Shown here piece after piece: positions 18,786 through 39,389 of a DNA stretch of 64,000 bases. Below the pieces are notes generated by a model that saw only the letters and a list, made by a program, of their open reading frames with translations, did no database searches and was not told the origin of the DNA. The translations under genes were made by a program, and so were the position numbers. This stretch comes from Octopus vulgaris (Eukaryota), in contig OX597825.1 of NCBI GenBank assembly GCA_951406725.2, forward strand, positions 27,838,001 to 27,902,000. The letters are read 5' to 3'. Position 1 is the first letter of the stretch. Each line of letters begins with the position of its first letter.

Positions 18786-19091
18786 TAATTATATACTTTA
18801 TATTAATTTCTAGTTGTGGTAGCAATTTTGATGGAATGAGAGAAGATCGACCTCTGTATTTAAGTGGTACTATATTTAAAGAACCCTGGTAGGATGAAAG
18901 ATAAAGGGAATTTCAACCATGAACATAGATTGCCGGAAATAAATTCCACAAAGATTTTTTTTTCCGACGCGCTATAAATTTTGTCAATTCAGTGCCTTTC
19001 TCACCTTGATAATAAATAGCAGCATGTGATAATTTCGGACATGTACTTGCATAGCAAGTGACCTGCTCTGAAATCGTGTGCTGGAACGAAA

Positions 19092-19375
19092 ACAATGGCA
19101 GCGTGGAAGGTGGTTATAAGCCATTTAAGAAACACACAAAAACCGTTAGAGTCACTTCAACATTTAAATTTAATTTGCCAAAATATTTTCGTCACTTTGA
19201 GACCGCGACCTGTTCACTGACAAAAGAGATGCCGCACGGAATTTTGTCAGTGAACAGGTCACGGTCTCAAAGTGACGAAAATATTTTGGCAAATTGAATT
19301 TAAATGTTCAAGTGAATCTAACGGTTTTTGTGTGTTTCTTAAATGACTTATAAACACCTCCCACTCTGCAATTGT
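19092..19375. mobile_element. Fold-back element: 134-bp inverted arms (19092-19225 / 19242-19375), probable PLE-end hairpin
   Basis: Arms are reverse complements with only scattered mismatches and a 16-bp spacer. Each arm contains a hammerhead-like motif next to the centre. Confidence 0.75.
19243..19293 (+). ncRNA. Minimal hammerhead-like ribozyme, G3:C8 core variant (second copy at 19174-19224 on -)
   Basis: TTTGTCA-GTGAACA-g-GTCAC(ggtctcaaa)GTGAC-GAAA-ATAT-TT-TGGCAAA: 7-bp stem I, 5-bp stem II, palindromic AATATT stem III. Confidence 0.62.
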
Positions 19376-19943
19376 GATAATTTGATTCAATATAAATATG
19401 AAGAGGACAAACTTATAGACTTTCATTAAGTTGTCCTTTTAAGTTCACGATTTCATTTACAGCTGAGATTTTGTTCCATAGTTAAGATTGTTTAAAGAGT
19501 AACAATCAGAAAGAGATATAACTAAAGATGATGCTCAACATTATAAAAATATTTTCAGCCTCATATTTTTATCATCCAGTAATAAGTATCAGTCATATTA
19601 TTATAAAGCAAATATGGCACATGTGTGATTTTAAAGGAACGTGAAGAAATGATTATATAATAAATTCGAAAAGTGTTATTCTTTCTTTTCCTTTTATCTT
19701 TTGTCATTGCTATTCATAATGAATTAAAGTGTGTAGTTTTTGCTTTTAAAAAATTTCCGGTCAAATCGTCTCAAAACTGATTTGCTTTTAAAAATTTGGG
19801 AGATCGACAAAATTTGTTTCTACACTTTTAATAAGAATTCAGCTCCCAGGGCGCATCTTCCATTTAGTTATGACCATGTGCTTTGATGCAGGAACATGAT
19901 TGTCAAATTTGCGCCTTGTTATTAGTCTACTTATTACACTAAC

Positions 19944-24592: not shown

Positions 24593-25326
24593 GCAGGAAA
24601 GGAAAGATGGACGATGGGCACGTGTGAGCAACGAGAAAGAGAAAAAGAGAGAGGGGGAGAGAGGGACAGATAGAAGGGGTGGAGAGAAAGCAAAATAGAA
24701 GATGGGATGAATAGGCATTAACTTACGTCACTAGGATTGTTTCTGTATATTAGTGAAAGTTTCGAACCCACTCACCTGAAGACGTGCAGTTACGTAGATA
24801 TCGTTGGAACATTTTAATGCAAGAATCTAAATAATATGTGAAAAACTTATCAATTACCGGCCGATAATAATGCATAGAAACGATTGTAGTGATATGGATT
24901 TAAGCCGGTTCATTTCATCATCTTCTATTGTAAATTTCTTGTACGAATTGTACGGATATAAGCTGATCGCCACTTGCACACCCGGTAGAAGGATAGCATA
25001 TGGTAGCTATATACACCGCTCATATGATGGATATGCATTGTATATAGTTATTCGCTGCAGTTACCGGTGGTTTCATTCCGTTTTGTGATCTAACCTCTGA
25101 TCCCATTATGGCATTGAACAACCCAATTACCTGAATAGCATGTTTTTTTTTGTATAACATTTCTTGATATTCTTAACAGCAGATTTAACAGCAGCAAAAG
25201 TGCACCTTACCAACTTTATATATTTTATACACCACATATACACACGCACAAACACATGCATGTATACACATATACGCATGTACGTATGTGTGCGTGTGTG
25301 AATATAATATATATATATATATATAT

Positions 25327-25535
25327 AACTAAAAATAAGGGTGTCTGAGAGGCACCACCTTGCCGAAATAGCACGTGGTTTTTAAAGTCAGGGTTTTGAC
25401 TGCTATTTCGGCATGGTGGTGCCTCTCAGACACCCTTATTTTTAGTTGTAAAAAAATTATTACCTTTTTACGTTTTTTTTTCCCATGCTGGCCACTTGAT
25501 AATATCGATACTTAAATATCGATATTATCCTTATT
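25327..25535. mobile_element. Fold-back fragment in (TA)n: 47-bp inverted arms (25327-25373 / 25401-25447) plus an extension with a 13-bp-arm palindrome
   Basis: aactaaaaataagggtgtctgagaggcaccacc(t/a)tgccgaaatagca and its reverse complement, with (TA)n on both sides. Confidence 0.7.
25390..25436 (-). ncRNA. Hammerhead-like motif with a CUGA-GA core (position 7 missing)
   Basis: Minus strand AGGGTGT-CTGAGA-GGCA(ccacca)TGCC-GAAA-TAGCA-GTC-AAAACCCT: GUC triplet, stem II GGCA/TGCC, imperfect stem I. Confidence 0.5.
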
Positions 25536-39138: not shown

Positions 39139-39389
39139 ACCGGAGTAAACACATAAATGTGAAACAAGGAGGAAAAAAAGAGTACTCAAATACCAGGGGT
39201 AGAGTAATATGCTTTATTTAAAAGCAGCAGAAATTCAACAAAACCTGTTACTCGGACTTTCACGTTCCCGTTCGTCGGATAGTTTTGTTAAAATTCTAAC
39301 AATTTTAACAAAATTGTCCGACGAATGGGAACGTGAAACTCCGAGTAACAGGTTTTGTTGAATTTCTGCTGCTTTTAAATAAAGTATAT
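39139..39389 (-). mobile_element. Fold-back PLE-end fragment in (TA)n: 89-bp arms (39207-39295 / 39301-39389) plus a ~68-bp unpaired tail
   Basis: Near-perfect inverted arms with a 5-bp spacer, (TA)n on both sides, hammerhead-like motif in both arms. Confidence 0.78.
39307..39359 (+). ncRNA. Minimal hammerhead-like ribozyme, U4C core (CCGACGA); second copy at 39237-39289 on -
   Basis: AACAAAATTGT-CCGACGA-ATG(GGAA)CGT-GAAA-CTCCGAG-TA-ACAGGTTTTGTT. The other arm has a perfect ACG(GGAA)CGT stem II. GUA triplet. Confidence 0.62.

Follow-up and report, generated by a model that had tools for sequence, protein, structure and literature searches.

The 64,000-nucleotide stretch of Octopus vulgaris DNA analyzed here, referred to as the window, carries the long hairpin that the initial annotation had described. 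Its inverted arms (19092-19225 and 19242-19375) are 134 nt each, are 93% complementary and enclose a 16-nt spacer. The left arm is longer than first noted, reaching about 19034 through a 58-nt tail, while the apparent spacer is the 5' end of the right-hand of two copies of a pLTR unit. The left, inverted copy lacks 15 nt at its 5' end and has the tail, which we infer to mark a distal reverse-transcription start; the right copy begins with a G that is missing in the parent element. Both arms are 86-93% identical to units linked to the open reading frame (ORF) of a Penelope-like element (PLE), both still encode the start of the ORF peptide, and the whole is bounded by an 11-bp target duplication. 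The hairpin is an ordinary, decayed PLE insertion with the standard PLE layout (Table 1).

Table 1. The hairpin insertion and the hammerhead motifs of its arms, in window coordinates
Feature	Position	Strand	Remark
Left target-site duplication, TGTGATAATTT	19025..19035	.	whole hairpin flanked by TGTGATAATTT on both sides
ORF-start remnant, MAYNHLPRCHCFRSSTRFQSRSLAMQVHVRN	19032..19124	-	parent reads MAYKHLPRCNCFRFSTRSQIKLLAMRVHLRN
Inverted 5'-truncated pLTR copy	19034..19225	-	unit positions 16-208; 87-92% identity to ORF-linked units
Optional 3' tail of inverted copy	19034..19091	-	codons of the PLE ORF start
Type I hammerhead motif, left arm	19174..19224	-	core GUGAACA at 19217-19211
Direct pLTR copy	19226..19375	+	family 5' end (G + AGATG...) to short 3' end CAATTGT
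Type I hammerhead motif, right arm	19243..19293	+	descriptor match and predicted fold
Right motif, stem I	19243-19249/19287-19293	+	
Right motif, core	19250-19256	+	G3 = 19250, C8 = 19255
Right motif, extra G	19257	+	between A9 and G10.1
Right motif, stem II	19258-19262/19272-19276	+	
Right motif, GAAA	19277-19280	+	
Right motif, palindrome AATATT	19280-19285	+	
Right motif, predicted cut	after U17 (19286)	+	
Remnant of first 11 ORF codons	19343..19375	+	MTYKHLPLCNC
Right target-site duplication, TGTGATAATTT	19373..19383	.	first 3 nt common to element end

Read from the center outward, each arm contains TTTGTCA GTGAACA G GTC(A/G)C GGTCTCAAA GTGAC GAAA ATATTT TGGCAAA, in which the conserved residues of a minimal type I hammerhead are all present (U4 G5 A6, A9, G12 A13 A14, A15.1:U16.1 and H17). 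The canonical C3:G8 pair is replaced by G3:C8, which remains a Watson-Crick pair and, as described below, covaries among relatives. The swapped core, together with intact stems I and II, the GAAA and a palindromic stem III, had been correctly recognized at the outset. The minimum-energy fold predicted for each 51-mer consists of stems I and II with the core unpaired (z -2.0 and -1.2, which is modest), and the predicted duplex energy of the palindrome is just -0.2 kcal/mol. A strict hammerhead descriptor matched only the two arm motifs in the 64-kb window, none of 5000 unit-sized Markov control sequences and nothing in 15 Markov windows, where a loose descriptor gave 1 match. An Rfam search with the hairpin returned nothing at gathering score and, by E-value, only generic hairpin and miRNA models.

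A hammerhead had been reported on both strands; the motif indeed occupies both arms, but its strandedness is merely a by-product of inverted insertion. The two motifs lie on opposite strands and point away from each other, so that no dimer can form within one transcript, and read-through RNA of the hairpin is predicted to fold into a long duplex burying both, making the window copy probably inert. Stem II of the family is GTCGC/GCGAC, and the GTCAC/GTGAC of the window therefore represents CpG-type decays. Three other sites in the window have hammerhead-like motifs. An inverted PLE-type stub in (TA)n at 1759-2085 has a U3:A8 hammerhead (TTGAAAA GGTC TCAAAAT GACC GAAA CCGG TA) with a loop resembling loop II of the G3:C8 family; the right arm of a hairpin at 39207-39389 reads CCGACGA followed by GAAACTCCGAGTA and appears to be the decayed hammerhead, with canonical core, of a third family; and a hairpin adjoining (TA)n at 25324-25450 contains GTGT CTGAGA GGCA..TGCC GAAA TA GCAC pointing inward, a hammerhead-like motif one core nucleotide short and oriented opposite to the usual PLE stubs.

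The repeated sequence forms the terminal (pLTR) unit of a PLE with RT and GIY-YIG. At two loci (L124 and L125), opposed matches about 3 kb apart enclose an RT + GIY-YIG ORF, a 3' UTR of ~1 kb and then the unit. The unit with core GTGAACA is found in all 30 of the 30 best ORF loci, which makes independent insertion of the ORF-linked units untenable and answers the call in the initial annotation for copies attached to a PLE ORF. The joint between unit and 3' UTR occurs at 1,195 places. The unit thus sits ~1 kb behind the ORF and, in tandem, before it: one locus (L216) has the order unit-ORF-unit, a partial tandem of the kind that forms pLTRs in EN+ PLEs, with the ORF start inside the repeat. The ATG at which the frame begins (MAYKHLPRCNC...) lies within the unit, so the tail consists of ORF-start codons. 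ORF copies of the window type have 1.7-2.4 kb between ORF and unit, not 1 kb, and two older ORF-linked copies (L196, L205) have the window's loop type. The EN+ PLE hallmark of a single ORF with RT and C-terminal GIY-YIG belongs to the parent element, the window stub excluded. In the parent protein (P0001), Pfam places the GIY-YIG domain at 915-1005 (E 1.8e-5), and the linker that connects RT with EN reads CQSNCAVC; it was without a match to Pfam RVT_1 or in PDB, and its RT is assigned from motifs read by eye and from homolog names. The linker conforms to the CX2-5CxxC mark of Neptune/Nematis-type PLEs described by Craig et al. 2021 (PMC8557442), a likeness in linker motif. A first GIY-YIG sweep (148 matches, 30 loci read) recovered other PLE families with U3:A8 motifs and not the parent; L070, L075 and related loci represent another young PLE family; its open frames measure 781 aa, and a U3:A8 hammerhead lies close to its 3' end.

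G3:C8 is the state of the whole family and not peculiar to the window copy. In the 2.8-Gb host genome, a 44-nt stretch across the core is matched at least 5,255 times when 2 mismatches are allowed, and a 37-nt stretch downstream 7,904 times when 1 is allowed; reversed controls gave 0 in both cases. Rfam thus misses a family of at least 5,255 matches. A core-blind set was formed from the first 100 exact matches on contig C1, which gave 75 distinct loci, three long loci being treated separately. Within it, G3 is present in 75/77 arms and C8 in 74/80, and the exact C3:G8 version of the 20-mer is absent from the host genome. GTGAACA is the consensus, and the postulated distinct family with intact stems is real and PLE-linked, as both this set and the 30 ORF loci attest. 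Unit 5' starts pile up at positions 1-4 of ~208 nt, and 3' ends cluster at about 147-149 and about 207. Within the motif, subfamilies are told apart by loop II, which reads GGTCTCAAA or GGATTTTA, by letters immediately 5' of stem I, and by a single stem I position at which U-A is switched to U-G with pairing retained. Copies of the family also lie within multi-kilobase nested palindromic duplications on contig C1 (L062 and L063), 97-98% identical between two sites 55 Mb apart.

The 3:8 pair was also followed in other PLEs. The closest relative (P0002, 57% RT identity), a second young family in the host genome, groups with the G3:C8 family at 100 support in a quick tree built without named references, where the frames of rows L252 and L258 may be incorrect in part; the two N-termini are homologous. 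This sister family (L217-L246, e.g. L222:57-100) has CCA CTGATGC G GTCAC..GTGAC GAAA GAAC TT TGG upstream of the ATG in 30/30 loci. The motif is C3:G8, has U17, repeats the extra G of the G3:C8 family and carries a double change in its 5-bp stem II. Unlike the G3:C8 family, the sister family has C at the normally conserved position 9, as does L247 (TTGAAAC), and its open frames reach about 1312 aa. Among 13 of 27 metagenome relatives scanned for hammerheads, the descriptor matched L247 (U3:A8, extra G, U17) and L258 (C3:G8), and reading by eye gave U3:A8 in L249 and C3:G8 in L251. A distant PLE family in the host genome has U3:A8 in 6/30 loci by descriptor. In L248, about 95-145 nt after the ORF match, a CTGAAGA core is followed by GAAT instead of GAAA, a possible 15.1 variant. 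The 3:8 pair covaries, being G:C in the window's family, C:G in L258 as in the sister family, and U:A in L247, and on sequence comparison the swap is therefore a genuine compensatory change at a site homologous among these PLEs.

The junctions of inserted copies were examined for traces of self-cleavage. Of the 5' junctions, 50 fall at the predicted cut, 10 lie six nt upstream and 30 lie seven nt downstream. Eighteen of the 50 cut-site junctions are preceded by AC; of those inspected, three are fold-backs at stem-I microhomology and two are intact copies altered internally. Junctions were clean at only about half of 20 cut-site loci inspected, so that there is no sharp peak at the cut. U17 and a 2-bp stem III are each expected to slow hammerhead cleavage. 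The swap itself, likewise expected to slow it, is described as a partial rescue in the available text of PMC11167929 and PMC8495972; since the C3G/G8C double mutant partly restores cleavage of a PLE hammerhead in the former study, and the latter makes the same statement in general terms, weak activity of the G3:C8 motif is likely by analogy.

The strongest alternative retains the PLE end piece and takes the motif to descend from a hammerhead, to have ceased cleaving and to be retained for its fold, for instance as a protein-binding or promoter element. The lack of a 5'-end peak at the cut accords with this, as do the thousands of copies reverse-transcribed through the site intact and, in the portions of PMC11167929 available to us, ribozyme mutants without effect on in vitro insertion and RNA-seq without ends at the cut. 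Against these stand the three Watson-Crick states of the 3:8 pair among relatives and the retention of U4 G5 A6, G12 A13 A14 and A15.1:U16.1, a pattern expected of the tertiary pair of a catalytic core, as well as the partial activity of the double mutant in a PLE (PMC11167929, same portions). We regard such a purely structural role as unlikely. The reading that we favor, and hold with good though incomplete confidence, is that the hairpin is one pLTR-unit insertion in which a short direct copy is joined to a tailed inverted one, with a minimal type I motif whose G3:C8 pair is family-wide and which probably still cleaves weakly.

The anatomy of the insertions bears on how such copies arise. 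Of 135 loci, 68 are inverted and 67 single-armed, and inversion points vary between loci. Exactly one arm is tailed in 67/68 inverted insertions, reproducing, as the window copy does, the inverted 5'-truncated copy and one-sided tail of EN+ PLEs; in the lone exception the flanks are mirrored as well, suggesting a host duplication. Target duplications of at least 9 bp, mostly 11-14 bp, occur at 24/44 non-(TA)n loci compared with 26/1892 mismatched flank pairs. The supposition of a different target preference fails, since (TA)5 lies within 35 nt of an end in 50/75 core-blind loci as against 9.5% of random window positions; the window copy is indeed outside (TA)n, but this is not a family trait. 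The UUU triplet, likewise, stands as a predicted RNA self-cleavage site but carries no information on the DNA target, and U17 is found also in the sister family and L247. Where both arms could be clearly typed, 33/35 pairs share a loop subfamily and 2 differ, suggesting that one RNA or sibling RNAs were used; rare variants are common to both arms in 15/237 cases against a shuffled mean of 2.4, a figure that fails to tell one RNA from two. Apart from one direct pair that has (TA)n between its members, copies occur singly or inverted. The head-to-tail arrays of ORF-less monomers typical of a non-LTR retrozyme are not what is found, the unit being part of a coding element, and inward-facing pairs 2.7 kb apart on contig C1, considered as a possible TIR element, are host palindromic duplications.

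In 17/24 short copies AGATG follows a G, at a place where C or T stands in the parent, which suggests that transcription starts here and that the G was templated by the cap. A weaker explanation of the AGATG start is splicing to the acceptor CTAAC...TTTCT(C/T)AG, which would alter only the origin of the template and which we consider improbable. In both of its subfamily variants the parent does contain a CTAAC that resembles a branch point, along with a pyrimidine run and YAG, and in Drosophila, according to the available text of PMC4209133, a PLE intron has its end at helix I. The short copies, however, retain AG plus one extra G, no upstream exon sequence is common to 30 loci, and a GT..AG joint is absent from four contig sets (from guessed-RNA runs covering the unit, contigs that are weak for splicing). 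A MITE or foldback DNA transposon with an accidental hammerhead look would fit the long inverted arms and high copy number, and the initial annotation cautioned that the hairpin could be mistaken for a MITE; this reading has a negligible chance of being correct, given 67/135 single-armed loci, variable inversion points and junctions, arms ending at two different sites rather than in fixed terminal inverted repeats, long and variable duplications rather than a fixed short TSD, and a unit that is the end of an RT-EN ORF element.

Returning to the capped start, these features can be accommodated in a model of insertion. A short capped RNA would start at AGATG under the pLTR promoter, and the protein of the element would nick an AT-rich or (TA)n site on both strands. 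Priming at the distal start on one strand would yield the tail, the other strand being primed at the proximal start, after which the two cDNAs would join head to head. Cleavage would be weak, probably taking place as a dimer or with the help of protein, and the 3:8 pair would be retained by selection on the ribozyme fold. Priming of both strands by a PLE protein, and two RT starts bounding the tail, are reported in the available text of PMC11167929. In vitro, the anole PLE is described there as using the two strands without a start-site difference, and thus the strict one-tailed asymmetry is not predicted.

Many of these traits are familiar. As far as the text of PMC4209133 shows, PLE hammerheads have an extra nucleotide after position 9, a palindromic helix III, U3-A8 and opposite-strand pairs. 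The octopus motif shares with known PLE hammerheads the type I order, the unpaired nucleotide between 9 and 10.1, G10.1:C11.1, a short palindromic helix III, mostly solo copies, opposite-strand pairs and a covarying 3:8 pair (U3-A8 in Schistosoma); it differs in a G3:C8 pair unreported in the portions available, in a 7-bp stem I and in a predicted UUU triplet. The EN+ Neptune/Nematis-type PLEs, so far as PMC8557442 could be consulted, have in common with the octopus element an RT with C-terminal GIY-YIG, the linker (here CQSNCAVC), partial tandems, an inverted 5'-truncated copy, a one-sided tail and a (TA)n bias. Their tails are 30-40 nt, whereas the octopus tail is about 58 nt, and most octopus copies are stubs of about 150-208 nt with a defined 5' end. 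In Poseidon PAc of Anolis (Frangieh et al. 2024, PMC11167929, in the same portions as above), two RT starts inside the ORF start likewise define the tail, both strands are nicked and extended, and C3G/G8C is partly active. There, in contrast, the swap was engineered and ATG and hammerhead overlap, while in octopus the swap is natural, the ATG lies about 92 nt downstream of it, and inverted copies in the genome use the two starts asymmetrically. Covariation at 3 and 8 is shared with the natural core variants of Perreault et al. 2011 (PMC3088659), in whose consulted text U3:A8 is the sole variant named. G3:C8 appears as a mutant in the available text of PMC3884650, and a natural G3:C8 was not found in the literature searched, including PMC6155905 and PMC6765202, a search that covered text rather than figures and supplements. 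In that literature the pair is known solely as a laboratory mutant, and its absence from print overall remains provisional.

The most far-reaching version of our proposal, which we put forward tentatively and at somewhat less than even confidence, is that this is a natural and active G3:C8 hammerhead, new to print, fixed in a young PLE family of thousands of copies and missed by searches for CUGANGA, and that the arrangement of one tailed and one short copy records ordered two-strand priming, each nicked strand having its own RT start on RNA from the same source. If the motif cleaves, it would provide a natural example of a core pair otherwise met as an engineered rescue mutant; PLE hammerheads would use at least three Watson-Crick states at 3:8, and standard descriptors would undercount them. 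The G3:C8 family and its close C3:G8 sister constitute a ready test set for the role of hammerheads in PLEs, and the 67/68 asymmetry places a quantitative genomic constraint on models of PLE integration.
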